Virus record (IMG/VR): IMGVR_UViG_3300045995_000065
Coordinates: 1 to 64,000 of that record
Source of the DNA: a virus
Reading direction: 5' to 3' (one strand)
DNA length: 64,000 nt
The translations under genes were made by a program, and so were the position numbers. This document shows positions 6,461 to 58,128 of the stretch, piece after piece (within the stretch, counting starts at the first letter, position 1; every line of letters starts with the position of its first letter). The notes beneath the pieces are model-generated. The model ran no database searches and was not told where the DNA came from. It saw nothing but the letters and a program-made list of their open reading frames with translations.

Positions 6461-6537
6461 CTTAACGTAGGACAATTTAACTGCATATATTGGGAAACCG
6501 CTGGACTTAATAAATACTGCTATATAAGAGCAACAAT

Positions 6538-6888
6538 ATGGCAACTCTAGAAACACGAACCGCAGTACTCGAAAAAATCGCAGAGTCACACGACAAACGC
6601 ATTGGCGATATGGAAGATTTCCAGCGTAATGTTGTGGATCGTCTTGACCAAAAGATCCAAATGGACTTGGCATCACAAATCAGCTTAGAGCGAACTCTAA
6701 CTCGTGCTGTTACGAGTTTAGACACATTATCTGTTGCTGTTAAAGACGCAGGGATTAAAGCTGACGAAGCATCAACGATGGTTAAGAAACACGAGACAAT
6801 TGGGTTAACCATAATGAAGGTTGGCACTATTCTTGCGGTAGTGATCTCGGCTGGATGGGCGGTTTTAAAATACGTTCTTCCACAGTAA
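6538..6888 (+). CDS. Coiled-coil protein with C-terminal TM helix (XhlA/holin-like architecture)
   Basis: LETRTAVLE heptads; VGTILAVVISAGWAVL TM; late promoter TAAATA at 6511. Confidence 0.7.
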   Translation: MATLETRTAVLEKIAESHDKRIGDMEDFQRNVVDRLDQKIQMDLASQISLERTLTRAVTSLDTLSVAVKDAGIKADEASTMVKKHETIGLTIMKVGTILAVVISAGWAVLKYVLPQ

Positions 6889-6896
6889 GGAGTCTT

Positions 6897-7370
6897 ATGC
6901 TAGTCCAATTAATTTACGTCTCGACACCAGTTGCGGAAAAGATAGGGGAGGTTAATGCTTCCTTGCCTGGTAACCAACTACGTAACAAAGAACGTGGCAT
7001 CAGCGGTTTAGTGCTGTCTCACCCTAAGTTTTACTTGCAAATTTTAGAAGGTGAACGCATTGCGGTAAGCAAGTTATTTCACAAGATTATGTGCGACAAG
7101 CGCCACCAAGACGTTACTATCATACGCTTCCAAGAAGCCATGCGCTCTGACTTTTCTCGTTGGGACTATGCTATCATTGACGAAAATCTTGACACGGACT
7201 TTTACGAGAACATACGTGATTTACTTGATTTTGAAATCGACTTTAAGCGAGATATGTCAAGCTCGTGTGCAATGGCTGTATTGCGCAGAGCATTTGCAAT
7301 TATAACAATGAAGCAAATTCCCAACCGCCGCTCAACTGATATTAAAGACTTACCTCAGGTCCGTGCTTAA
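6897..7370 (+). CDS. BLUF-domain (blue-light FAD sensor) protein
   Basis: LIYVS, RN..GISGLVL..FYLQILEGE..V..LF.KI..DKRHQDV..FSRW; AAGGAG RBS before ATG 6897. Confidence 0.88.
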   Translation: MLVQLIYVSTPVAEKIGEVNASLPGNQLRNKERGISGLVLSHPKFYLQILEGERIAVSKLFHKIMCDKRHQDVTIIRFQEAMRSDFSRWDYAIIDENLDTDFYENIRDLLDFEIDFKRDMSSSCAMAVLRRAFAIITMKQIPNRRSTDIKDLPQVRA

Positions 7371-8643
7371 GGAAAACTTCTGACTGCGGCGGTAGCGTTG
7401 GGACAAAGTAACTCAATTGGTCAACTCCAATTTCGTCTAGTACCATTATAGGTAAATTACTCCAGTGGGCATACTCAGGCCAATCACTGCCTTTAACAGT
7501 GTCGTAAAACATCTTCCATTCAGCATCTTTTAATTCTGTTTCTTTTATTAATGCTCTAGCAACTAAGCCCTCACGCATCTTGCACACATCCGCAGTGCCA
7601 CGATTCAGCAATGAGTTCATGAGTGTTGGCACATTAAATTTAGTCGCAGTATCGTTTACGATTTTTATTGCGCCTGCTGCAAGCAATTCAAATTGTTTTT
7701 TGTTTTGCTCAATGACTTCTGATATCTCGTCATCATTTTCTTGATGATGCAAAATCCAATCTATGTTGCTCAGTGCATTGTCAACTTGTGCCTTGGTAAG
7801 TTCATTACCTATTTCCACTGTGGAAGGGAAAAACTTAGTGAATGCTGAGACTCCGATGGACTCTAAATATTCATGCGTACCAGGGATCGCAAGCAGTACA
7901 AATGGGTGACTGAATGCGATTGCCTTCCATACCTTTTCTGTTATGGTGGGCATAGTTCGAGTGGCAGATTCAGACACTAAACTGACGCGGGTATCAGTGT
8001 ACATTGATGGGTCGACAATATCACAAAAAAATTCAAAATCTTTAAACCCAACACGAGTGGTTGGTATGTTAGTGGGTTCCAAATCAGTTATGCCACGATG
8101 CTGCAAAAGATATTGCATTAGCTCGCCGTCGTCTAAATCCCATTGGGTGATAATGTTTTTACTCTCGTCGTCGAATTTTTCATTCGCATACATGAACGAG
8201 TATTTCAACTTAGATATAATACCAGACTTAACCGCAGATGCCAGCGCACCAATTCGGTTTAAGTAATGCATTTTTCCAGTTAAGAACAATGCTTTGTCAG
8301 CATTGCGATTCCACTCAGTGTCTGGTGGGTTAGACAACACCTTGACAAACATTGCCCAGTAACTAATATAAACGATGTCTATACCTTCCCACAGGTGCGA
8401 AAATTGCTTGTACTGATCGTCAGCGATGACTGTTAGTTTCTTGTTTTTATTTTTGGCCAATTCACGTATGCATGTGAGTGTTTCTATTACCTCTGGGGTA
8501 CCAGGAAAGAACTCGTAAATTAAAAAAGCTATAACATGGTCTGCCTCACTGTTGGAGTCAAACCATGCTTCTAGCTCAATGCTTAATAGTTTTGGGTGGG
8601 CGAAACACATAAAAGAATGTAATTCCAGCAATGACGTTATCAT
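7342..8643 (-). CDS. Glycosyltransferase-like protein
   Basis: SLVSES..ITEKVWKAIAFSHPFVLLA..EYLESIG (GT-B-like C-terminal motif); paralog of 13945..15093. Confidence 0.55.
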   Translation of the reverse strand: MITSLLELHSFMCFAHPKLLSIELEAWFDSNSEADHVIAFLIYEFFPGTPEVIETLTCIRELAKNKNKKLTVIADDQYKQFSHLWEGIDIVYISYWAMFVKVLSNPPDTEWNRNADKALFLTGKMHYLNRIGALASAVKSGIISKLKYSFMYANEKFDDESKNIITQWDLDDGELMQYLLQHRGITDLEPTNIPTTRVGFKDFEFFCDIVDPSMYTDTRVSLVSESATRTMPTITEKVWKAIAFSHPFVLLAIPGTHEYLESIGVSAFTKFFPSTVEIGNELTKAQVDNALSNIDWILHHQENDDEISEVIEQNKKQFELLAAGAIKIVNDTATKFNVPTLMNSLLNRGTADVCKMREGLVARALIKETELKDAEWKMFYDTVKGSDWPEYAHWSNLPIMVLDEIGVDQLSYFVPTLPPQSEVFLKHGPEVSL

Positions 8644-8673: not shown

Positions 8674-8919
8674 TTATTTTGCAGTCTTAAAATACTTAGC
8701 AAAGTCTTGGTTCACAAACTTTTGCGATGCTGTCACGGTTTCGGAATACAAAGACGTACCAACATCAGTGAAAGCCTTTACAGCTTCCTTAGTGTAAGTT
8801 GCTTGCGTGTCGACAAACTTGTTCATTGCCTTTGCAGCCGCTTCATTCTTGACGAATGTAGTAACGAATTGCTTCTTGGACTTAACGACGGAATTGATGA
8901 AATCTTCTGGTGTAAACAT
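8674..8919 (-). CDS. Phasin-like (PHA granule-associated) protein
   Basis: 81 aa amphipathic helical protein FINSVVKSKKQFVTTFV..MNKFVDTQATYTKEAVK; AGGAG RBS; PhaR-type box upstream. Confidence 0.6.
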   Translation of the reverse strand: MFTPEDFINSVVKSKKQFVTTFVKNEAAAKAMNKFVDTQATYTKEAVKAFTDVGTSLYSETVTASQKFVNQDFAKYFKTAK

Positions 8920-8948
8920 AATATTCTCCTTAGACGAATGTTTAATAC

Positions 8949-8988
8949 TATGCAGCCCACGGAATGTAGCACTGCACAAAGTATTTAT
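8949..8988 (-). promoter_or_regulatory. Late promoter plus conserved 5' leader hairpin (shared with Hsp20 gene)
   Basis: ATAAATAC-TTTGTGCAGTGCTAC-ATTCC-GTGGGCTGCATA. Confidence 0.75.
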
Positions 8989-8993
8989 GTATT

Positions 8994-9010
8994 ATGCTGC
9001 ATTGCAGCAT
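8994..9010. promoter_or_regulatory. Perfect palindrome, PhaR-type operator candidate
   Basis: ATGCTGCA-T-TGCAGCAT (CTGC-N3-GCAG) between divergent promoters. Confidence 0.65.
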
Positions 9011-9078
9011 TTTTAGCAAGTATTCTGGCTAAATTGCTTTGCGCTAAATACTTGCTACATCATTTAAGGAGAATATAG

Positions 9079-9345
9079 ATGTTTAAGAAAATTATTGACG
9101 CTACAGTTGCGTTTTTCAAAGGACCACAAATTGCGCCAGTTGTTCCTGAAGCACCTTACAAATTGGAGGCACCAGTTGTTGTAGAAACTCCTATGGTAAA
9201 TCCAGTACCCGAAGTAGCACCAGTGGTTGAGGCAGTTAAAAAGCCACGCAAGCCAAGAGCACCTAAAGTCGAAGTTAAACCAGTCGCAAAAAAGCCAGCT
9301 GCTAAAAAAGCGCCGGCTAAGAAAACTACTAAGCCTAAAGCTTAA
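9079..9345 (+). CDS. Lys/Pro/Ala-rich histone H1-like protein
   Basis: KKPAAKKAPAKKTTKPKA; AAGGAG RBS; TAAATA at 9045 within inverted repeat 9014-9057. Confidence 0.75.
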   Translation: MFKKIIDATVAFFKGPQIAPVVPEAPYKLEAPVVVETPMVNPVPEVAPVVEAVKKPRKPRAPKVEVKPVAKKPAAKKAPAKKTTKPKA

Positions 9346-10298
9346 TCTAGTATCCCAAAGTTTGCCCAATTAGCGGCACCCAGACAAACCCAACCCATTG
9401 GTCCGCCCAAGGTTGGGTTTGTGTTGAATACAATGTGACCTTTTGTGCTGGTGTATGATGGCGGCTGATTTGCCGCACTCAGCTTAACACTGCCTATACG
9501 CAAGTCGGATATTTCAGTTGTGCCATCAGTATTCAATGTGATGTTATGTTTGTTGTTGGAAGATAATACCACAGCTTGTGCACGTGGTGTACCAATCTTA
9601 GCAACGCCCTCTTTATCCTTAGACACAGTGACTTCTACTTCTTGATCCCAAATACTGAGTGCAGCAGATGGCTCTAAAGTATTGATGCCCACTCGTTTCT
9701 TCGTTACGTACAGTGTATTGGCAAGCACTGATTCTCCGTCTACTTGTAATTCACGCAACGCTCCTACTTTTTGCAAAAAGCTTTCGGTAATATCAAAGCC
9801 AAGCATCTTGCCTTCAATTACCGTAACACCATCAATAGTAATCTTCTTTAAGTCGATTCCGTCTGCTTTGATAGTGTCGGTTACTTTTTGCGTGAAGCCT
9901 GCAAACATGTCAGCTTCCAATGATGCTTGAACATTAGCAGTAACCGTTGATGACAATTGTTTGTAAAACACAGAATCTTCTGGTACCGGGCCTTCAACAA
10001 TGAACTTGCCCTTGACAGTTAAGTCCTTGGTAAGCAAATTGTTTTCCACGACGGTAACATCGTCCATCAGTGTAAGTACGCATTCAGATGCACGATCGTC
10101 TATACCAGTAGAAGAGAAGTTAGCAATGATGCCGCCTTGAATCTGCTCGCCAGTAATCGTGATCTCGCGCTGTCTAACCGCTACAGCAGGAATGCTTGCA
10201 GTTGGATATTTTTCGCGCTTAAGGAGTTTTGCTGTAACAAAATCCTCGATGTATTGTTTAATCTCGTCTGTCAGTTCTGTTTGTGTTGAATCGGTCAT
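9342..10298 (-). CDS. Probable virion structural protein (beta-rich)
   Basis: 318 aa; RVGINTLEPS and GHIVFN..GWVC..W..FG motifs typical of phage fibre proteins. Confidence 0.6.
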   Translation of the reverse strand: MTDSTQTELTDEIKQYIEDFVTAKLLKREKYPTASIPAVAVRQREITITGEQIQGGIIANFSSTGIDDRASECVLTLMDDVTVVENNLLTKDLTVKGKFIVEGPVPEDSVFYKQLSSTVTANVQASLEADMFAGFTQKVTDTIKADGIDLKKITIDGVTVIEGKMLGFDITESFLQKVGALRELQVDGESVLANTLYVTKKRVGINTLEPSAALSIWDQEVEVTVSKDKEGVAKIGTPRAQAVVLSSNNKHNITLNTDGTTEISDLRIGSVKLSAANQPPSYTSTKGHIVFNTNPTLGGPMGWVCLGAANWANFGILD

Positions 10299-12222: not shown

Positions 12223-12731
12223 CCTGTAATTTGCAGTGTGTAGCGATCTTCTTCGCCTAAGTTAGCCGCAGCATGTGGTGTGTCGTATTCCCACCACGCA
12301 GTTTGTCCAGCTTTCCAATCAACGATTGGTTTGCCATTTACTTCGGAGTAATGACCGCTTTTCCAATCTTCTAGGAATACCACGGCACGATTGATTCTGT
12401 GTTCGGCTCCAGCGAGACTATGTAGTTGAATATATTTGACATATAGATCAGAGTGATTTGGCATGACGGTGCCAGTGGCCATACGGTAATAAGAAGTCCC
12501 AACATTTTTCCATCCCATTGCTTCAAAGATTTTAATAAACTTTTTGTTCCAACTTGGCTGCTCTGAGCGCATATCGCACATAGCACCTGTGATTTTGTCG
12601 CTGTAACCCATTGCGAGCCACCTGCGTACACTCTCCTGGTCGTTAAACGGCTCGTGTATGTAATCTAAAGATTTAAATTCGTCGTCCCAAAATTTTGGGA
12701 GCATGAATTTATTTGATACGTGTGTTGCCAT
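12213..12731 (-). CDS. Fe(II)/2-oxoglutarate oxygenase-like (cupin) protein
   Basis: MPNHSD (HxD)..PHAAANLG..RYTLQITG. Confidence 0.75.
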   Translation of the reverse strand: MATHVSNKFMLPKFWDDEFKSLDYIHEPFNDQESVRRWLAMGYSDKITGAMCDMRSEQPSWNKKFIKIFEAMGWKNVGTSYYRMATGTVMPNHSDLYVKYIQLHSLAGAEHRINRAVVFLEDWKSGHYSEVNGKPIVDWKAGQTAWWEYDTPHAAANLGEEDRYTLQITGWR

Positions 12732-13944
12732 AATGGATCACCTTAATGTTTTTGTTTGTGGATGTATAAGTACGCCACGGATCAACCACAATGCTTCCGT
12801 CGTGTATGTCACAGTAGACACCTTGCTTTTGTCCACCTGCGTAACCGTAAGTTACGTTGGCATTATGCGCCAATAAAACTACACCAACTACTGGCTCAGT
12901 AGCGATATCGTTTGTTAACGGATCAACATAGAATGGCTTTGTGCCTGTTAACTGCTCTATGTAATGTCCTACTAGCAAGCTATACGACCCATCAGTGTAC
13001 GACACGTTAGGCTTGTATGCTTTGCCGTGTATGAAGATAGGCAAGTCATTGAATGCTGCTTTTTTAACCAGGAACAAAGCAAGGTTCTCTGCTTGAATTT
13101 CTCTGGCATGCATAATTGCGTCAAAGAGATCGTAACCTAAATTCAACTGCTCTGCTAAATGCCTTAGTGCAATGTTGTCACGTGGGTGGCAGGGCCCGGC
13201 ATCTCCCATCCCTGCGGTCATGTACTTGGGACCCATTATCCGCATCGTACTTTTTGCGAGCGCTGTGGTAACTACATCTACATTAATGTTACCTTGTTTG
13301 ATGGCCACATCTTGAATCATGTTGGCTAAACCAATCTTCGCGCTTATATAAGTGTTGTAGAACACCTTAATGCACTCTGCTTCGTCCCACGTTCCAACCT
13401 CGTAGCGAGGATCGTTTTGCATGATGGGCTTATAGAAGTCAATAAGCGTCTTAGCATCACCAGTCAACGATCCATCCTCTGTTCCTATGATGACCATTTC
13501 TGGATTAACCATATCCCACGCAACTGATCCCATTGCGATTAGGTATGGATTGTAAATAAACTTTGCATTATAAATGAGTGGTTGCAACTCACGGCGAACT
13601 GTACCTGGTAGCACAGTGGAAATGAGCACTACTAACTGATGCGACAGTGCAACTTTGTTGATTTCGAATAAAACATCTTTAACTGTCGCGTAATCAAAGT
13701 CTTTGTTTGGTAAATGGGCAATTGGTGCTGAGCCATCGTAAGCAGGATCGTGCGGCGTTTGCACTGCGACAAAAATGATATCTTGCCCCAAAACGGCTTT
13801 GTGCAGTTTGTTAACGATATTAATCTTGTCACTTGTCTTGGGGTAAATATCGTAACCAGTAACATTATAGTGCTCGCCCATTGCTTCTGCACATGGCATG
13901 CCTAACTTACCAATTCCAATAAACCCTACATTTTTGATTTCCAT
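12709..13944 (-). CDS. UDP-glucose/GDP-mannose dehydrogenase family
   Basis: GFIGIGKLG, VAVQTP, STVLPGT, AECIKVFYN, GPCHPRD. Confidence 0.92.
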   Translation of the reverse strand: MEIKNVGFIGIGKLGMPCAEAMGEHYNVTGYDIYPKTSDKINIVNKLHKAVLGQDIIFVAVQTPHDPAYDGSAPIAHLPNKDFDYATVKDVLFEINKVALSHQLVVLISTVLPGTVRRELQPLIYNAKFIYNPYLIAMGSVAWDMVNPEMVIIGTEDGSLTGDAKTLIDFYKPIMQNDPRYEVGTWDEAECIKVFYNTYISAKIGLANMIQDVAIKQGNINVDVVTTALAKSTMRIMGPKYMTAGMGDAGPCHPRDNIALRHLAEQLNLGYDLFDAIMHAREIQAENLALFLVKKAAFNDLPIFIHGKAYKPNVSYTDGSYSLLVGHYIEQLTGTKPFYVDPLTNDIATEPVVGVVLLAHNANVTYGYAGGQKQGVYCDIHDGSIVVDPWRTYTSTNKNIKVIHYGNTRIK

Positions 13945-15093
13945 ATGATTCCTGTTGATAACTTTTATAATGTATTGTACGCTAATCTATTTAACAAGTC
14001 TATGGACCCTCGGTTCATATATTTCCTAAATTTTACTACCAATGTTACCACATCAGATTTATTTTTGTCGTGGACTCCGATGCCCAGCGTAAACGTGTTG
14101 TCTAAAAATGACATAACTTTGTTTTACGACCAAGAACCAATTTTCTTAGAATCAACCAAGCAAGTGTTGAATTTAGTAATGACTCTGGATGAATGGCAAG
14201 AGCATTCTGGAAATATGATCCTGGGAAATTCGGAATATTCCGACGTAAAAACTAAACTGTGCGCTGAGCATAACTTCAATGATTGGTATTACTTTTACCA
14301 TGGATTTGCAGCACTAGATTGGTACCGGGATTACAAATATTTCCCTAAGAGCAAATTTAAATTTGATAAAGTATTTATGTCTCTTAATCATTTGATGACA
14401 ACTGACAGATCATATCGCTTAACTTTGGTTGCCAACTACATGCAAGAAGGATTAATGGGCAAGGGCATAGTAAGTTTGCCGTTACGTGACAAGAATAGAA
14501 CAATCAATGAAGAGCTATTTTCGCAGGACTCAAAGCTGTCCAAAGCAGCAAAGCGATTAGTGTTTGAATACCTTTCCCCGCTAACACAACCATTTATCGC
14601 TGATACTGAATACCCAGATGGTTATATGAGCGCAGCTACAGATTTTGATTTCCAACGCACAGCATTTTGGCATGTAGTAGCAGAGACTGTGTTCTACCAC
14701 AAGAAGCTGCATTTGACTGAGAAGATATTCAAGCCTATTATTGCTCGCCGTCCGTTCCTGTTAGTAGCAGCGCCAGGTAACCTAGCATACTTAAAGAGCT
14801 ATGGGTTCAAAACGTTCTATAAATGGGTAGACGAATCGTACGACAACGAGCAAGATGATGACAAGCGCATTGCTATGGTCGTCGCACAGCTAAAGAAGTT
14901 GTGCGCAATGAACAAGGACGACTTGTATGAGATGCAGCAAGAGATGGACGACATACTGGACTACAACTTCAATCACTTCTACGGCAATTTTAAGCAGATT
15001 ATTGTTACTGAAATGCTTGATAACTTCAAGAAACTACCTATTAACCACGGAGACATTAACTTCACAGAAGTATACGATCGCCTAATGCGCTAA
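13945..15093 (+). CDS. Glycosyltransferase-like protein
   Basis: FYDQEP, HVVAETVF..HLTEKIFKPI..PFLL..LAYLKSYGFKTF..DESYD. Confidence 0.6.
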   Translation: MIPVDNFYNVLYANLFNKSMDPRFIYFLNFTTNVTTSDLFLSWTPMPSVNVLSKNDITLFYDQEPIFLESTKQVLNLVMTLDEWQEHSGNMILGNSEYSDVKTKLCAEHNFNDWYYFYHGFAALDWYRDYKYFPKSKFKFDKVFMSLNHLMTTDRSYRLTLVANYMQEGLMGKGIVSLPLRDKNRTINEELFSQDSKLSKAAKRLVFEYLSPLTQPFIADTEYPDGYMSAATDFDFQRTAFWHVVAETVFYHKKLHLTEKIFKPIIARRPFLLVAAPGNLAYLKSYGFKTFYKWVDESYDNEQDDDKRIAMVVAQLKKLCAMNKDDLYEMQQEMDDILDYNFNHFYGNFKQIIVTEMLDNFKKLPINHGDINFTEVYDRLMR

Positions 15094-15100
15094 ATACTGT

Positions 15101-16015
15101 ATGAAAATAAATGAGATCATCTGCGAAGACGTGTCACAAGGCGACTTTGCTCAAATAGAGCGATTTGCTGATGCGCTATGGGGCAGGCTTGGCATTGACG
15201 TAAAATTTACTTGGCACTTCATGCAACGTGTAAACGATGTGCGCAACGGTAAGCCTATCACCACGGCTGAGCTTATTCGTATGTTCAAGAAGGAATATAT
15301 GAAGTACGGCAAAGATGTGTCTAGCATGGACAACTCAGTAGAAGCAGTCTTCAAAGATGCGATGACTGCTATCAACTTGCCATTCGTTATCAAAGACACC
15401 CCGCAAGGTAAAGAGCTTATCGCCAAGACTACGATGCGTAAGCCTAACTTTAAGACTCGTCCCGGCCAACCAACGTATGTCATTGACGATGTTAACTTGC
15501 CTAAAGATCAGTGGGAGACATTGATCTCTACTGCTGACAAAGAGGAGGTTGGTGACAACCTTGTGCAGTTAGTGCAGCAAGCATATAACGCTACACCTGA
15601 AGGTAGCTTTGTAAACAGTATGAAAGACGTCATCCCGTCTGACTGGGAAGTAATTGACTGGGACGGCGACCAAAGTATCAATGCCACAGTATTCTTCCGC
15701 AAGCCACGTGGCAATGAAAACTGGCAAGGCTATAAGATACAAGGGTTGGGTCACGATGGCCAACGTGCGTCTAAGGATCGCGCTATCAAGAAGATGATAC
15801 AGATGCTTGAGACTCGTGGTTATTGGTTAGAAGGATCAGACGCAATGCGGGCAGTGCTTAAACGTTACCAAGTCATTGCAGTGTCAAACGAGCAATTCCT
15901 GCAGCGTCTGTTCAATGACTCACAGCTACGCATGGTGAACCACGACACATACCAACGTAAACTAAGCAACCGTGTCATCACTGAATCTGTCTTTGGAAGG
16001 CCTATTCTGCGATGA
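15101..16015 (+). CDS. Putative head-internal protein, two modules
   Basis: MKINEIICE N-terminus; TAAATA 4 nt upstream. Confidence 0.7.
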   Translation: MKINEIICEDVSQGDFAQIERFADALWGRLGIDVKFTWHFMQRVNDVRNGKPITTAELIRMFKKEYMKYGKDVSSMDNSVEAVFKDAMTAINLPFVIKDTPQGKELIAKTTMRKPNFKTRPGQPTYVIDDVNLPKDQWETLISTADKEEVGDNLVQLVQQAYNATPEGSFVNSMKDVIPSDWEVIDWDGDQSINATVFFRKPRGNENWQGYKIQGLGHDGQRASKDRAIKKMIQMLETRGYWLEGSDAMRAVLKRYQVIAVSNEQFLQRLFNDSQLRMVNHDTYQRKLSNRVITESVFGRPILR

Positions 16016-16842
16016 AGATAAACGAGATCATTACTGAATTGCGCAAAGCAAAACCTCGCGAACCAAAAGCAGGTGATACAACTCCGCACGATTACAATCC
16101 TGGGTGGGAGACACTAAACTACCTTAAAGAGCAAGCATTCAAACAAGGTCAGCGTTTAGCTGAAAGCTATCAGTTATTCATGCCACGTAGAAACAATGGT
16201 GCGCAGCCAGCTCGTGATCGCAGGATGGCAAATATAGGAAACAAATGGGCCTGGGACGAAACTGATCCTACACAGCTTAAGCCGCAGTACGCAAGGTGGG
16301 AGCAGGGACAAAAGGATCTAAGTCCCAATGGTATGCAAGATGACGAAGTGACGGAAGCAGCACCAATACTAAAACCAGGTAAGGCAGAGTCTCCCCCTGG
16401 CAATAACAAACCACACGCTGACCTATGGACAAGCACTGCTAAACGTGGTGGTGATGGCGCTTACACAAGTGATTGGGTACGCTATGTCAATGATGCAGGG
16501 CACGATTGGATGGCACCAAAAGGTTACCTATACAAAGTCAAACCTGGTGCATTGATACTAGAATTAAACAGCGACCACGATGCTGAACGTATCTATCAAG
16601 CATTTGAAAGTTTAGGCACAGCACAACCTATTGACTACAGTAGTTCATACGGTAGATTAACAAAAGCATTTCCGTGGGATCAAGTTGTAAAACATTTTGA
16701 TGGTGTGCGCCACGGGGGATACAATAGTCGTGACGATTTTATATACGGTTGGGATTGTGAATCAACTGCATGGTTTAACACTAGCTTCTTAACATTGGTA
16801 GCGGAGGTTCCTATCTCCCGCTACAGGGAAGACGAATACTAA
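16012..16842 (+). CDS. Putative head-internal protein with ADP-ribosyltransferase-like module
   Basis: MKINEIITE; internal VTEA; LWTST..W..FDGV..GWDCES. Confidence 0.55.
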   Translation: MKINEIITELRKAKPREPKAGDTTPHDYNPGWETLNYLKEQAFKQGQRLAESYQLFMPRRNNGAQPARDRRMANIGNKWAWDETDPTQLKPQYARWEQGQKDLSPNGMQDDEVTEAAPILKPGKAESPPGNNKPHADLWTSTAKRGGDGAYTSDWVRYVNDAGHDWMAPKGYLYKVKPGALILELNSDHDAERIYQAFESLGTAQPIDYSSSYGRLTKAFPWDQVVKHFDGVRHGGYNSRDDFIYGWDCESTAWFNTSFLTLVAEVPISRYREDEY

Positions 16843-16843
16843 A

Positions 16844-17773
16844 ATGAAGATAAACGAGATCTTAACAGAAGAAGAGGCGCCGATCCTTCCCAAGCGAGTA
16901 ACTGACAAGGAGTTGGTTGCGCTATTGGGTAAGGGTAAGACCAATGCTATGCTTCGTCACCCTTGGTTCCAACGCTACTCCAACTATCAAAAGGCATACC
17001 GCTATGCAAAAGACAAATGGGGCTTTGTCACTGTTGACATGTTCCCTTTCTTTGTAGAGCACAATAGAACTCCTGATGGCGGCATTCGTCCTACCATCTA
17101 TGTGTCGTTCATCTTCTCTTACTCTGGTACCAAGGTAGTGCAAGCACATCAGTTTACACGCCCATTGGTGCCTGATGAGTTTGAATTGAATAACAAGATT
17201 ACTGGTGGGTGGCAGCACGGCACGACTTGGAAGGTAGACAAAGTAAAAGAAGATACTTACCAACCACCAGAGCTACACACTGGTGACAAGATTCTCAAGG
17301 GCAAGTTTAAGAACAGTCCCGCCACGATTAAAGGCTTCTCTAAAGACAAACACAACCAGCCAGTGCTAAAGACTGACAAAGGTGCAGTGCAATTGTTCAA
17401 GCCCCGTGTCACGAAGTTGATGACAAACGAATCAGTGATGCCTGGTACTTACGTGCACGAAACATCTCCAGAGAAGGCTGCGCAAATTGCAAAGATGGGG
17501 TTCAAGCCATCGTACGAAGGCATCTTCTTTAACCGCGACGGTACAGGTTACTCGGGTGGTGGTTACGGTGGCGCATTGATAACAGTGCAGCTAAACATCA
17601 CTAAGTTACTTGACATGGACGGTGACGCAGAAATGCCAGAGGACTTAGACGAGTTTGCTGATGGTGAAGAGATTGCCCAGTACGCACGTAGTCACGGTTA
17701 CCAAGCTTGGGCTGATGACTTACAAATCGCTGTACTTGACCCACGTTGCATCAAAATCGTGAGCATTAAATGA
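16844..17773 (+). CDS. Putative head-internal polyprotein with C-terminal ART-like module
   Basis: MKINEILTE; internal VKED and TNES junctions; YVHETS..IAKMGFK..GIFF..YG. Confidence 0.6.
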   Translation: MKINEILTEEEAPILPKRVTDKELVALLGKGKTNAMLRHPWFQRYSNYQKAYRYAKDKWGFVTVDMFPFFVEHNRTPDGGIRPTIYVSFIFSYSGTKVVQAHQFTRPLVPDEFELNNKITGGWQHGTTWKVDKVKEDTYQPPELHTGDKILKGKFKNSPATIKGFSKDKHNQPVLKTDKGAVQLFKPRVTKLMTNESVMPGTYVHETSPEKAAQIAKMGFKPSYEGIFFNRDGTGYSGGGYGGALITVQLNITKLLDMDGDAEMPEDLDEFADGEEIAQYARSHGYQAWADDLQIAVLDPRCIKIVSIK

Positions 17774-18639
17774 ACCTGTACGACTTATTTGAAGGCGCGA
17801 CAGACGTCTTGTATCACTATACCGGTATTCGCCCGGCTCTTAAAGTTTTGCAAAGTGGAATGTTTGAGCTAAGTCGTTCTACAGGTAATAAGTCTGAAGA
17901 GAACTATGCACCAGCAGGTTACGATTACTTCTTCTCCACTACACGCTCCAAGACTGGCGACTACCATCGCATGGTTGGCAATGGTGCAGTTATGTTCGTC
18001 TTAGACGGGCAGTGGTTTGGCCAACGTTACAAAGTAAAGCCTATTGATTATTGGGATCGCTCTTGGTTGCAAACTCACGACCGGACTCGCGAAGCTGAAG
18101 ATAGGGTATTCTCTAAAACACCTGCAATTCCAATTGGCGGAGTCCGTGCTATACATGCATTTATCAATGAGCATAACGAGTGGCGCTCTCCTGAGTTACG
18201 CACTATGCTATTGCAGGCTAAGAAACTTGGGTTGCCCATTTTTATGTATAATAATGAAGAGGCGTGGCGCTTGCAAGATACACGCAAGGCATTGACAGTG
18301 CAACAGATGGCACCATTGCTTAAGGGTGTTATGCCAGTGGCACACCAGTACAGACCAAGTACAGACTACATTAAGCCATGGCTGGAATTGATCCATAAGA
18401 AGAGCAAAGCAGACTTAAGCCCAGAAGGTGAAAAGTTGCGCTATAACTTGGTATACTACGGATCACGTTACGAGAACGAAGATAGCGGATTGGGCAATGC
18501 ATTGGCTAACGAGCGTAAGCCAGGTAACACTGGGTATGACTCTGCAACCAAGCTGATACAAGCGATGCGCCAATCTAAGTTAAACTCACCACTTGCACTG
18601 AAAAATGCGTTGTGCCAGAAGTGGGAAAATATTAAATGA
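17770..18639 (+). CDS. Putative head-internal ART-like protein
   Basis: MNLYDLFE; LYHYT..L..G.F; FFSTTRS; EAEDR (H-S-E pattern). Confidence 0.55.
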   Translation: MNLYDLFEGATDVLYHYTGIRPALKVLQSGMFELSRSTGNKSEENYAPAGYDYFFSTTRSKTGDYHRMVGNGAVMFVLDGQWFGQRYKVKPIDYWDRSWLQTHDRTREAEDRVFSKTPAIPIGGVRAIHAFINEHNEWRSPELRTMLLQAKKLGLPIFMYNNEEAWRLQDTRKALTVQQMAPLLKGVMPVAHQYRPSTDYIKPWLELIHKKSKADLSPEGEKLRYNLVYYGSRYENEDSGLGNALANERKPGNTGYDSATKLIQAMRQSKLNSPLALKNALCQKWENIK

Positions 18640-19379
18640 TCACAATAGAACCCTACTTAGAGTTCTACATCACCAACGTTTGTAACTTAGCTTGTAAGGG
18701 CTGTAATAGATTCAACAATTACAAGTTTAAAGGACATCAAACGTGGGCAGACCACGAGGCAGAGTATGCTAAGTGGTCTAAACGTATAACTGCTCCCTTC
18801 ATTACTATCATTGGGGGCGAGCCTACATTGAATCCCGACTTGGAAAACTTTGCTGCTGGTATACGTAAGCTATGGCCCGATAGCGAGGTGATGATTCAGA
18901 CCAATGGCACGTATCAACGCCCACGGCATATCAAATTTTGGAAGAATTACAAAGTGGGATACGGTGTGTCATTGCATGACCCAGCTACTGCTGATGACAT
19001 TAAGAAAACATGGAAGGACCATGGTGGGACATTTGACGCTTACGACTTTCATCAAGCAGCATTGATAGAGGATGGTGATAAGTTTTTACTTCATGACAGC
19101 GTACCGATTACTGCATTTGAGTTTTGCGATATGAAGCACGATCGCACGATGTTTAACGGAAAGCTATTCAAGTGCCCGTCAATGGCAACGATACCCGAGT
19201 TTAGAAAACAGTTTGATGTTGTGCTGTCACAGGATGATGAGACACTACTAACCTCTTACCAACCACTAAGTGCAGATTGCACTGAAGAAGAATTGCAGAC
19301 ATTTTTTATGGACAGGGATAAACCTATTCTGCAATGTAAGTTTTGCCCGCAAAACTTAGTGTGGGCTAAAGCTCTTTAA
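18636..19379 (+). CDS. Radical SAM protein
   Basis: CNLACKGC, GGEP, TNG, C-terminal CKFC. Confidence 0.9.
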   Translation: MITIEPYLEFYITNVCNLACKGCNRFNNYKFKGHQTWADHEAEYAKWSKRITAPFITIIGGEPTLNPDLENFAAGIRKLWPDSEVMIQTNGTYQRPRHIKFWKNYKVGYGVSLHDPATADDIKKTWKDHGGTFDAYDFHQAALIEDGDKFLLHDSVPITAFEFCDMKHDRTMFNGKLFKCPSMATIPEFRKQFDVVLSQDDETLLTSYQPLSADCTEEELQTFFMDRDKPILQCKFCPQNLVWAKAL

Positions 19380-22543: not shown

Positions 22544-23734
22544 TCAATGTGCATCGCGTACAGTTTGTTCCGTGATCTCTAAGGCAGCGATTCCTTGCGC
22601 TTTCATCTCAGTTAAAGCGTACATATAGGGCATTAACGTGCGTTCCAGGATGCTTTTCAGCCCTCTTGCGCCCGTGCCCTGCTCGTGTGCTAACTCTGCA
22701 CAAGCTTGTATTGCACCGTCTGTGAATTTTAATTCTACGTCGTCAGACTCAAAGTAGAACTTCATCTGTGCGAGTAAGTTGTTGCTTGGTTCCTTAAGAA
22801 CACGAACAAAGTCTTCTACTGTTAGCGCATCAATTGGTACTGCAATAGGGAAACGACCAGTGAACTCTGGGATCATACCAAACTTGATAAAGTCATCAGG
22901 AATGAATGCAGCCGTGTTTACTTTGGTCGCAGTGTTACCAAATCCAATAGCAGAACCTTTTTGTCTACGTTCCACGATCTTGTCAAGGTCAGAAAATGCG
23001 CCGCCCGCAATGAATAAGATCTTGCTTGTGTCAATCTCAACCTGATCCATGGCAGGATGCTTCTTACTGCCGCCCACGCTTACTTTGCATATAGTGCCTT
23101 CTACCAATTTTAGTAATGCTTGCTGGACACCTTCGCCAGACACATCACGGGAGATACTTGCGCTCTCAGACTTCCTGCCAATCTTATCAACTTCGTCTAA
23201 GAAGACGATTCCGTGTTGGCATCGTTCTACATCATTATCTGCTGCACTTAGTAGGCTGCTAACGACACTTTCAACATCGTCGCCCACATACCCTGCTTCA
23301 GTTAGTGTAGTCGCATCTGCTACGACGAAAGGAACATTGAGGTAACGTGCGATTGTCTTAGCAAGCAATGTTTTGCCTGAACCTGTTGGCCCAAAGATAA
23401 GGATGTTAGACTTCTCTAACTCAACAGGGGACTCGAAGTAAATGCGCTTATAGTGATTCACCACGCCCACAGCGATAGCAATCTTTGCTGCATCCTGTCC
23501 GATAACGTACTGGTCAAGATAGGCTTTGATCTTCATCGGATCTAAAGCCTTCGTGATCTTTTTATCTTTGCGTAGAGCATCGTTGTGCTCTTTGTTTAGT
23601 ATGCTTGCACATAGTTCAATGCACTCGTTACAAATTCCCGCATCATTTGCGACAATAAGTTTGTCAACGTCTGAGCGGGACTTCCCGCAGAAGTTACAGT
23701 GAACTAATGGTGTCAGTGACAGATTTGAGTTCAT
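22544..23734 (-). CDS. clpX: ClpX AAA+ unfoldase
   Basis: C4 zinc finger CNFC..CNEC, GPTGSGKT, TEAGYVG, DEVDK, RDVSGEGVQQ, IGF loop, GARGL. Confidence 0.97.
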   Translation of the reverse strand: MNSNLSLTPLVHCNFCGKSRSDVDKLIVANDAGICNECIELCASILNKEHNDALRKDKKITKALDPMKIKAYLDQYVIGQDAAKIAIAVGVVNHYKRIYFESPVELEKSNILIFGPTGSGKTLLAKTIARYLNVPFVVADATTLTEAGYVGDDVESVVSSLLSAADNDVERCQHGIVFLDEVDKIGRKSESASISRDVSGEGVQQALLKLVEGTICKVSVGGSKKHPAMDQVEIDTSKILFIAGGAFSDLDKIVERRQKGSAIGFGNTATKVNTAAFIPDDFIKFGMIPEFTGRFPIAVPIDALTVEDFVRVLKEPSNNLLAQMKFYFESDDVELKFTDGAIQACAELAHEQGTGARGLKSILERTLMPYMYALTEMKAQGIAALEITEQTVRDAH

Positions 23735-56258: not shown

Positions 56259-57617
56259 TTACCATACATTGGGTAATGCTATGCGTCTCCAAATGGGTGT
56301 GGAGCCATCGTATACAGTGGTGCAGACATACAAATAAATCGAATCCGCTGCAATCATCCCAGCCGTATCTCCAACTTTACCATATTTTGTTGTCGGAACG
56401 GGTTGTACCCCGGACGGTCCTTGCGGTCCAGGAACTGTACTATCAGCACCAGCCGGGCCTTGTAGGCCAATATTACCTTGAATACCTTGCGGACCTGTTG
56501 GACCAGCAACTATACTATCTGCACCTGCTGGTCCAATGTTACCTTGAATGCCCTGCGGACCAGGAACTGTACTAGCAGCACCAGCCGGGCCTTGTGGGCC
56601 AGTAGGTCCTACTAAAGATTGAAGCCAATCTATATTTGTACCGACAAATCCATTGATTGCTGCAACTTGATAAGCAGACAAACCATCATTGCCTGTGGGA
56701 CCTGGAATGCCTTGTATGCCCTGGGGACCTTGAATACCCTGTGTGCCTTGTGGACCTAAATCGCCCTGAATGCCCTGAATGCCTTGTGGACCTAAATCGC
56801 CTTGTACGCCTTGTGGGCCCAACGGACCAATATTACCTTGAATGCCTTGCGGGCCTATCGGTCCGATATTACCTTGAATGCCCTGTAAACCCTGAATGCC
56901 TTGCGGGCCCAAACTGCCTTGAATACCTTGTGGCCCTTGTAAACCTTGTGGGCCAACAATTTTACCAACGTCAACCCAAGCTGAGCCTGACCATGTGTAT
57001 AAATTGCCGTCAGCTTCAACAATGTATGCATCACCGACAACGTTGATAAACATAGGAAGGTCAGCAACCTGTAACACAGACCCCTTAAGATGAACTCCTG
57101 CACCAGCTTCGCCAGTATCACCTTTAGGACCAGCAATTCCCTGTAGTCCTTGTGGGCCAGTTAGACCTTGAATACCTTGCGATCCTTGTGGGCCAGCAAC
57201 TATACTATCTGCGCCAGTAAGCCCTTGGATACCCTGTGGTCCCATCGGACCAATATTACCTTGGATGCCTTGAGTGCCTTGTGGTCCTTCAATTCCTTGC
57301 AATCCTGTAGGGCCAGCAACACCCATTGGGCCCTGCGTGCCTTGAACACCTTGCGGTCCGGCTGGGCCTTGTGGCCCAGCCGGGCCTGTGGGCCCAACTG
57401 CTGTGCCAGCAGGACCTTCAGGTCCTATAGGCCCAGCTGGCCCTGTGGCGCCAACTGATGCAAGTGGGTATGGCAGATCTGTCCAACGTGAAATTCCGTT
57501 ACCGTACTTCACTCTTGAGGTATCTAGTTCTAGACCAGGTTCACCCAAAGCTAAGATAGGATTACGAGCCGTCCAATTAATTGCTAAATCACGTCTAAAT
57601 TTAATCTGTACTGTCAT
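56259..57617 (-). CDS. Collagen-like fibre with Mtd-N-like N-terminus
   Basis: QIKFRRD..W..NPIL..GE..KYGNG..W.DLPY; long Gly-X-Y tracts (GPQGIQ). Confidence 0.9.
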   Translation of the reverse strand: MTVQIKFRRDLAINWTARNPILALGEPGLELDTSRVKYGNGISRWTDLPYPLASVGATGPAGPIGPEGPAGTAVGPTGPAGPQGPAGPQGVQGTQGPMGVAGPTGLQGIEGPQGTQGIQGNIGPMGPQGIQGLTGADSIVAGPQGSQGIQGLTGPQGLQGIAGPKGDTGEAGAGVHLKGSVLQVADLPMFINVVGDAYIVEADGNLYTWSGSAWVDVGKIVGPQGLQGPQGIQGSLGPQGIQGLQGIQGNIGPIGPQGIQGNIGPLGPQGVQGDLGPQGIQGIQGDLGPQGTQGIQGPQGIQGIPGPTGNDGLSAYQVAAINGFVGTNIDWLQSLVGPTGPQGPAGAASTVPGPQGIQGNIGPAGADSIVAGPTGPQGIQGNIGLQGPAGADSTVPGPQGPSGVQPVPTTKYGKVGDTAGMIAADSIYLYVCTTVYDGSTPIWRRIALPNVW

Positions 57618-57618
57618 A

Positions 57619-58128
57619 TTATGCTCCACCGCCGTCTAAGACGACATCTCCTGCGTTTATGTTATATATTGTATCTGCGTTGCCCACTTCACCGTTGTAG
57701 TATGCTGGTAGTACCTTCAAGTCCAGTGGTACATCATAGTCTGCATCTACGTAAATTGGCTGCTCTAAGCTTGTTACTGTGTTTATTGTGCGAAATGTTA
57801 GCTTGTAAAAGCGTTGCTCTAATTCGTCGATTGTTGCCCTGTCAATCACAAAATTGCCTTGCCCTAGCGTTACGTTAGCCCAAGTAATAGGAAATGTAGC
57901 TACTGCTACTTTGTTGCTTGGGTCTTGTATCTCTGCGACCATAATGTAGTTCGTTACGTTGACATACTTCTGATCTTGGTTCTTGACAAGCACCTGCATA
58001 GGGTTATCAATACCTTGGTAAACTGTTACTGGTCGTGAATACACTACTCTGTTCCTTGTTGTGAAGATTGAGGGGTCAACTATTTGAGCCACAACTTTAT
58101 TGCTGTATAAATAAGTTTGGATGATCAT
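57619..58128 (-). CDS. Probable structural protein
   Basis: VYQGIDN..VKNQDQK; late promoter at about 58150. Confidence 0.65.
   Translation of the reverse strand: MIIQTYLYSNKVVAQIVDPSIFTTRNRVVYSRPVTVYQGIDNPMQVLVKNQDQKYVNVTNYIMVAEIQDPSNKVAVATFPITWANVTLGQGNFVIDRATIDELEQRFYKLTFRTINTVTSLEQPIYVDADYDVPLDLKVLPAYYNGEVGNADTIYNINAGDVVLDGGGA

Follow-up and report, generated by a model that had tools for sequence, protein, structure and literature searches.

A short BLUF protein paired with a predicted tail-anchored membrane protein in a conserved cassette of jumbo phages

The window, by which we mean the whole 64,000-nucleotide stretch of viral DNA that was analysed, carries a two-gene cassette in which a small protein with a predicted C-terminal membrane anchor (the partner) is followed by a short BLUF protein. 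On the strength of sequence comparison, the two genes are a real, conserved two-gene module, and their conserved pairing suggests a two-protein light-sensing or flavin-sensing switch, a variant form of short-BLUF signalling. The reading that we prefer, with a probability of roughly 0.45, is that a short BLUF protein with a bound flavin attaches to the cytoplasmic helical region of the tail-anchored protein and alters it under the influence of light late in infection.

Cassette layout and source genome

The features of the cassette are as follows.

6510..6516, + strand: ATAAATA, a T4-late-promoter-like motif within AATAAATA; it starts 28 nt before the partner ATG
6511-6516, + strand: TAAATA, inside AATAAATA; it starts 27 nt before the partner ATG
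6538..6888, + strand: partner gene, 116 aa; residues 1 to about 87 are conserved and helical, and residues from about 88 to 113 form a C-terminal hydrophobic anchor
6888..6892, + strand: AGGAG, ribosome-binding site of the BLUF gene; it overlaps the partner stop and lies 4 nt before the BLUF ATG
6897..7370, + strand: short BLUF protein, 157 aa; core 2-93, C-terminal helices 100-140, PNRRxTD tail motif 142-148

Both ORFs are on the + strand between two - strand genes. The partner ends with a TAA stop codon at 6886-6888 and the BLUF gene begins with an ATG at 6897, which leaves a gap of 8 nt. An alternative BLUF start at ATG 6855 would give a protein of 171 aa, a reading that is unlikely because the orthologues start at MLVQLIY.

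Downstream, the BLUF gene is met by a convergent 433-aa ORF on the - strand (7342-8643), which shares the last 29 nt of the BLUF gene. An ATAAATA lies 5 nt ahead of the start of this ORF, which matches no Pfam, PHROG, NCBIfam or PADLOC family. Contig L002, which also carries the cassette, is without this ORF at that place, and a homologue of window 8677-8919 directly follows its BLUF gene. A syntenic trio lies beside the cassette in both the window (8677-10298) and L002 (829-2532), and encodes an 81-aa helical protein (-), an 88-99-aa basic protein rich in Lys, Pro and Ala (+), and a 318-aa protein (-), none of them with a Pfam family. Two other contigs, the large relatives L006 (3078-3842) and L008 (3131-3820), have directly upstream of the cassette a gene for a HELRH (HExxH-like) protein of 229-254 aa that has no PHROG match.

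The IMG/VR virus record IMGVR_UViG_3300045995_000065 is 72,236 bp long, and its first 64 kb make up the window. CheckV puts the completeness of this record at 20%, which makes it a fragment of a jumbo phage. The gene content of the window includes ribonucleotide reductase, a DnaB-type helicase, and primase-like, ClpP, tail-spike-like and collagen/Mtd-like proteins, in keeping with the phage origin that the first-pass annotation had given the cassette. The nearest matches of the helicase are in Pseudomonas phage PA5oct (52%) and Agrobacterium phage Atu_ph07 (51%). The cassette region has no DNA-level match among 50,697 deposited phage genomes (INPHARED). A 3-kb stretch is present in riverine, wetland and pond metagenome runs, of which the five riverine ones may be the source runs, and a wetland run and a pond run each hold contigs over the BLUF gene with zero differences from the window. 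There is no RNA run among the sequencing runs that hold the 3-kb stretch.

Several other genes of the window are recorded here in their own right. A ClpP protease (909-1523, -, 210 bits) is encoded, as is an AAA-type ATPase with matches to PHROGs of ATP-dependent proteases (22544-23734, -); together they make it seem that the phage brings its own Clp-like protease parts. A 456-aa protein (56259-57629, -) combines the N-terminal domain of the major tropism determinant (Mtd_N, 36 bits) with collagen triple-helix repeats (114 bits) and may be a receptor-binding fibre. The region 12709-19379 contains a UDP-glucose-dehydrogenase-like gene (-), then five + strand ORFs of 276-382 aa without a Pfam family, then a radical-SAM gene (18636-19379), and may be a modification or sugar cluster.

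The BLUF protein and its photochemical residues

The 157-aa ORF matches the Pfam BLUF family PF04940 with 67.8 bits (E=9.5e-19, profile positions 1-90 of 92) against a Pfam cut-off of 25 bits, and a six-frame search gives 68.6 bits. The BLUF identity first assigned from the sequence alone is thereby borne out. The protein also matches phrog_19899, which is unnamed, with E=8.8e-16. Among solved structures, its best match by sequence is PixD (2hfn, phmmer, E=4.2e-9). In this alignment Tyr7 (LIYVS), Asn30 (RN), Gln48 (LQILEG) and Trp89 (FSRW) correspond to Y8, N32, Q50 and W91 of PixD, and Tyr91 falls on Met93, so the β5 Met is absent. These are the four photochemical residues, and the one replacement, that the first-pass annotation had read from the letters. 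By alignment, the window protein keeps the flavin triad of Tyr, Gln and Asn as well as the Trp. Since the β5 Met is highly conserved in the family without defining it, its loss leaves BLUF membership standing, and signalling may differ.

An AlphaFold2 model built from 26 relatives has a mean pLDDT of 89.8 and a pTM of 0.81. Its strands are at 2-11, 36-41, 46-53, 70-80 and 89-93, its core helices at 13-32 and 54-65, and its C-terminal helices at 100-106, 116-119 and 122-140. The top Foldseek match of the model is again PixD (2hfo_C, E=1.6e-10, TM 0.73/0.83) over 135 columns that include the C-terminal helices, followed by TePixD, BlsA, BlrB, AppA and photoactivated cyclases; the probability is 1.00 for PixD, BlrB, BlsA and AppA. 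PF04940 is the single Pfam family in the 157 aa, and the protein consists of a BLUF core and C-terminal helices with no output domain. Since the structural match spans these helices, the protein belongs with the short BLUF proteins of the PixD/BlrB/BlsA class. Sequence and model together indicate that 6897-7370 encodes a genuine short BLUF protein. The C-terminus had earlier been described as a short helix that ends in NRRSTD with no output domain. The latter part holds, while the former has to be replaced by three helices within 100-140, with NRRSTD at residues 143-148 and nine further residues beyond it. The tail motif PNRRxTD is kept in 7 of the 26 aligned relatives, and model confidence is low there.

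Within a set of the 155 nearest BLUF sequences (5 + 150 listed), the canonical Y-N-Q-W-M combination is present in 123. At the β5 position 130 have Met and 6 have Tyr, and all six of the latter are within the clade of the window protein. The nine BLUF proteins that are linked to a partner gene (see below) form a natural variant series. Those of L003 and L007 are fully canonical, with YNQ and W-x-M. Gln and Trp are also present in the proteins of the window, L002 and L009, where Met is replaced by Tyr, Phe and Tyr, respectively. The remaining four (L006, L008, L011 and L012) have His for the photocycle Gln and no Met, and L011 and L012 also lack the Trp. The His-type proteins, with gene coordinates of 4340-4783 in L006 and 4348-4776 in L008, have Ala or Val for the β5 Met and still score 62-79 bits on Pfam BLUF. 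The Tyr and the Asn are still there, as are the LEG and DxRH motifs and the C-terminal LRR helix, and the genes are still linked to a partner. All four are paired with a partner that is N-terminally extended by about 25-45 residues and bears a GRR/DRR motif. Tyr7 never varies across the 26 aligned relatives, and there is little variation at Asn30 or at the Ala and Arg in the C-terminal "LRR" helix. A FastTree of 162 BLUF domains places the nine linked proteins in one 36-tip clade with weak support (0.62, midpoint root), and most members of this clade retain Gln.

Gln and Asn are described as strictly conserved flavin ligands, with Tyr completing an FAD-Gln-Tyr network (PMC5899715). In the same account, the M93A form of PixD still shows the red shift, but light no longer induces the protein change, and the mutant acts as if locked in the signalling state. 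The β5 Met links the flavin pocket with the C-terminal helices, so Tyr91 at this place in the window protein counts against a working light switch.

These variants bear most directly on the alternative that the BLUF protein is degenerate or re-purposed, as a constant subunit of the membrane protein or as a flavin/redox sensor. It would then have no physiological role in light, and the canonical residues of the window protein would be ancestral leftovers. The four His-type orthologues, which have kept the linkage and their other motifs, favour this alternative, as does the loss of Met in the clade of the window. No photolyase, UvdE or psbA gene was found in 4/4 related records (for psbA the complete genome is included), which points in the same direction. 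The absence of these genes is no guide to light ecology or to the host, which the first-pass annotation took to be probably non-photosynthetic. The cassette has been retained despite the change of Gln to His, and what it does at its core may therefore be possible without the canonical photocycle. Against this, the full triad and the Trp are present in the window protein and in four further orthologues, two of them canonical throughout, and Gln is kept by most members of the clade. The phage is also found in surface freshwater habitats. A re-purposed BLUF protein is thus a serious candidate, if a rather unlikely one. This variation of the photochemical residues is what weighs most against calling the family simply a "photoreceptor", and it allows that the window protein may still be one. 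A light-dependent effect on the membrane partner stays our preferred reading.

The anchored partner, its linkage to the BLUF gene and the promoter motif

Searches started from the partner and from the BLUF protein returned 12 loci, which together with the window make up nine distinct contigs (the window, L002, L003, L006, L007, L008, L009, L011 and L012; L004, L005, L010 and L013-L016 are duplicates). A metagenome scan gave four loci, one of them a duplicate. Profile searches of all reading frames find both genes in 9/9 distinct contigs, on the same strand and with the BLUF gene immediately downstream of the partner gene. The co-occurrence in related phages on which the first-pass annotation had staked its idea is thus seen in all nine. 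The BLUF-started scans of IMG/VR included ones with two sub-alignments of the 26-sequence BLUF alignment, and every contig that these scans returned also carries the partner. Where both gene ends could be read (window, L003, L006, L007 and L008), the intergenic distance ranges from a 4-nt overlap to 9 nt. The upstream neighbours vary, with an HExxH-motif protein in L006 and L008 and other small ORFs in L003 and L007. This variation of the flanking genes between contigs suggests that the pair moves as a unit.

One relative, G001, is a complete genome of 364,576 bp with terminal repeats, and the others are fragments of 106 kb and 238 kb or short pieces. In all four of the larger records, one BLUF gene and no more passes the Pfam cut-off. 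Pairwise identities of the BLUF protein and the partner are correlated (Mantel r=0.68, p=0.002), which reflects co-inheritance and does not prove co-evolution, since related genomes share both genes. Mean pairwise identity is 58% for the partner versus 34% for the BLUF protein. The BLUF protein diverges much faster, so the conserved surface of the partner is probably constrained by something other than the BLUF protein.

It is also conceivable that the BLUF protein targets a host protein and overrides light-regulated behaviour of the host, with the membrane protein a mere co-transcribed neighbour. Known short BLUF proteins do signal through soluble cellular partners, as PixD does on PixE and BlsA on Fur (PMC5899715, PMC5955987), and the PNRRxTD tail motif could be a docking peptide. 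Yet the linkage is kept in all nine contigs, with translational coupling, while BLUF identity falls to about 26-31%, and the pair travels between different gene neighbourhoods. We regard a host target as improbable and favour the partner itself as the protein on which the BLUF protein would act.

The 116-aa partner matches no Pfam, PHROG or NCBIfam family. A PADLOC match to LeoB reaches 13 bits only and was treated as noise. The C-terminal 19-residue stretch of the partner has a Kyte-Doolittle mean of 2.0 and is followed by 6 residues, in agreement with the C-terminal anchor first noticed in the bare sequence. All 40 relatives likewise have a C-terminal 19-mer with a mean of at least 1.6, followed by 0-12 residues. 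From its sequence, this hydrophobic stretch is the signature of a predicted tail-anchored protein. The frequency of the commonest residue per column averages 0.80 over positions 1-60 versus 0.54-0.57 elsewhere, and many charged residues within positions 1-60 are conserved over the 40 relatives, which are 46-94% identical. This is more than a structural or generic coiled coil needs, and it argues for specific binding surfaces. The family comprises at least 36 clusters at 90% identity. It was not found by a pattern scan of 185,579 prokaryote genomes or by tblastn against the deposited phages of INPHARED, and a search for longer or fused forms of the partner gave none, which is a weak negative.

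The window BLUF protein, too, has no tblastn match among the deposited phages of INPHARED. The canonical BLUF protein of L007 retrieves only two records there, both named "Acinetobacter phage MD-2021a", through a gene annotated ycgF (E=3e-4). The two records (CAKLQH020000004.1 and CAKLQF020000002.1) are 232-305 kb long, and their size and annotation suggest that they are bacterial contigs filed as phage.

Language-model features of the partner are similar to those of the DUF2951, DUF7201 and XhlA clusters (0.93), which is a lead on architecture and not evidence of kinship. When the aligned relatives were scanned one by one, XhlA (PF10779) appeared in 2/40 with E>=0.33 and DUF7201 in 3/40, all at the level of noise. 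No PHROG matched more than 6/40 relatives (best E 9.4e-4), and the sole named ones are two single tape-measure matches with E>=0.004. Neither the window partner nor any of its 40 relatives matches a holin or lysis PHROG. Twelve neighbouring ORFs (2 flanking and 10 within about 5 kb) have no significant Pfam match and none is lysis-related, and those without a family could themselves be lysis proteins. Holins are usually far less conserved than this partner. The proposal of the first-pass annotation that the partner is an XhlA/holin-like lysis protein through which the BLUF protein gates lysis timing by light, a special case of our main reading, is therefore very doubtful: the helical N-terminal part, the C-terminal anchor, the feature similarity and the late-promoter-like motif upstream would fit it, but the profile searches, the neighbouring ORFs and the conservation of the partner all go against it.

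The promoter motif bears on the timing of the cassette. AATAAATA begins 29 nt before the partner ATG, and the TAAATA that it contains had already been noted as a late-type promoter ahead of the pair. Late promoters of T4 have the sequence TATAAATA, and their recognition involves the gp55 sigma factor. A near-identical variant in run X6 has TATAAATA at the motif site. In the window ATAAATA occurs 11 times, where 11.8 are expected, so that there is no overall enrichment. Nine of the 11 sites are no more than 120 nt upstream of a same-strand start, and about 10% of positions would be expected there. The placement of ATAAATA in the window is thus non-random, while its frequency is not raised. TAAATA is present within 150 nt upstream of the partner in 7 of the 8 loci that have upstream sequence, including two that are more G+C-rich; L009 is without it. 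Among the relatives, the complete genome G001 has a gene for a late sigma factor (phrog_12791, E=1.9e-74; phrog_234, E=2.5e-19), which was first traced through a weak match to T4 gp55. In the window's own 72-kb record no gp55-family sigma factor was found. The conserved upstream TAAATA and the gp55-type sigma factor in G001 make late transcription of the cassette plausible, by analogy with T4.

Possible mechanism and comparison with known systems

In the preferred reading, a freshwater jumbo phage would transcribe the two genes late, as one cassette, and their translation would be coupled. The product of the first gene would be a tail-anchored protein of the inner membrane, with its conserved helical N-terminal part on the cytoplasmic side. 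The second gene would supply a short BLUF protein of the PixD/BlrB/BlsA type that is cytoplasmic and binds flavin. The BLUF protein would dock on the helical part of its partner. Blue light, or the state of the flavin, would then change how the membrane protein associates or oligomerises at a late stage of infection. Flavin binding, the photocycle, binding between the two proteins and the late timing are the steps of this scheme that we infer.

A more far-reaching possibility is that a lineage of freshwater jumbo phages has its own photoreceptor. A membrane-tethered BLUF protein would read blue light late in infection and set a decision at the level of the membrane, for example by timing the release of progeny according to day and night or to depth. 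The sublineage with His for Gln would be a re-tuned or light-independent version. We consider this extended form speculative and on balance improbable. If the cassette is a working light switch, bacterial viruses would sense an environmental cue directly, and one would have to ask how information about light benefits a phage. The natural variants, with Met, with Tyr, Phe or His at the Met position, and with His for Gln, are a ready-made experiment on the coupling of flavin to output in BLUF proteins. A small light-regulated membrane-tethering pair could also serve as an optogenetic part.

Phages carry photosynthesis genes and other light-related metabolic genes. A search of the literature found no described sensory photoreceptor that a phage uses for its own decisions, and a full-text search found no study of a phage BLUF protein beyond one-sentence mentions in two virome papers. 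PF04940 is reported on two viral scaffolds (270 and 496 kb) that occur only in rain, with a k-mer link to a Flavobacteriaceae MAG (PMC10564846), and on two cloud-water vOTUs (bioRxiv 10.64898/2026.05.18.725630). Each of these papers gives the viral BLUF one sentence, and the portions of text available contain no analysis of residues, partner, promoter or conservation.

In architecture the partner resembles XhlA (PF10779), DUF2951 and DUF7201, which are small proteins of phages that combine a coiled coil with a membrane helix at the C-terminus. It differs from them in that it has no significant HMM match to any of the three, and no holin or endolysin was recognised beside it.

BlrB of Rhodobacter and BlsA of Acinetobacter are fold matches of the phage protein, with Foldseek E values of about 3e-9 to 6e-9, and they likewise consist of a single BLUF domain with a helical C-terminus. 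Unlike the phage protein they are cellular, and they have no linked gene for a membrane-anchored partner. BlsA acts on soluble regulators, including Fur (PMC5955987).

The closest known system is PixD (Slr1694/Tll0078) of cyanobacteria, which binds PixE and is the best match of the phage BLUF protein in both sequence and fold. PixD and PixE are a case of a short BLUF protein that signals through a cellular partner (PMC5899715). The phage protein resembles PixD in its size class and in having a BLUF core followed by C-terminal helices with no enzymatic output domain, and PixD too signals via a separate partner. It differs in its identity of only about 25%, in the Tyr at the equivalent of Met93, in being encoded by a phage and in lying behind a late-type promoter motif. 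PixE is response-regulator-like. The putative partner of the phage BLUF protein, in contrast, is a tail-anchored membrane protein without similarity to PixE.
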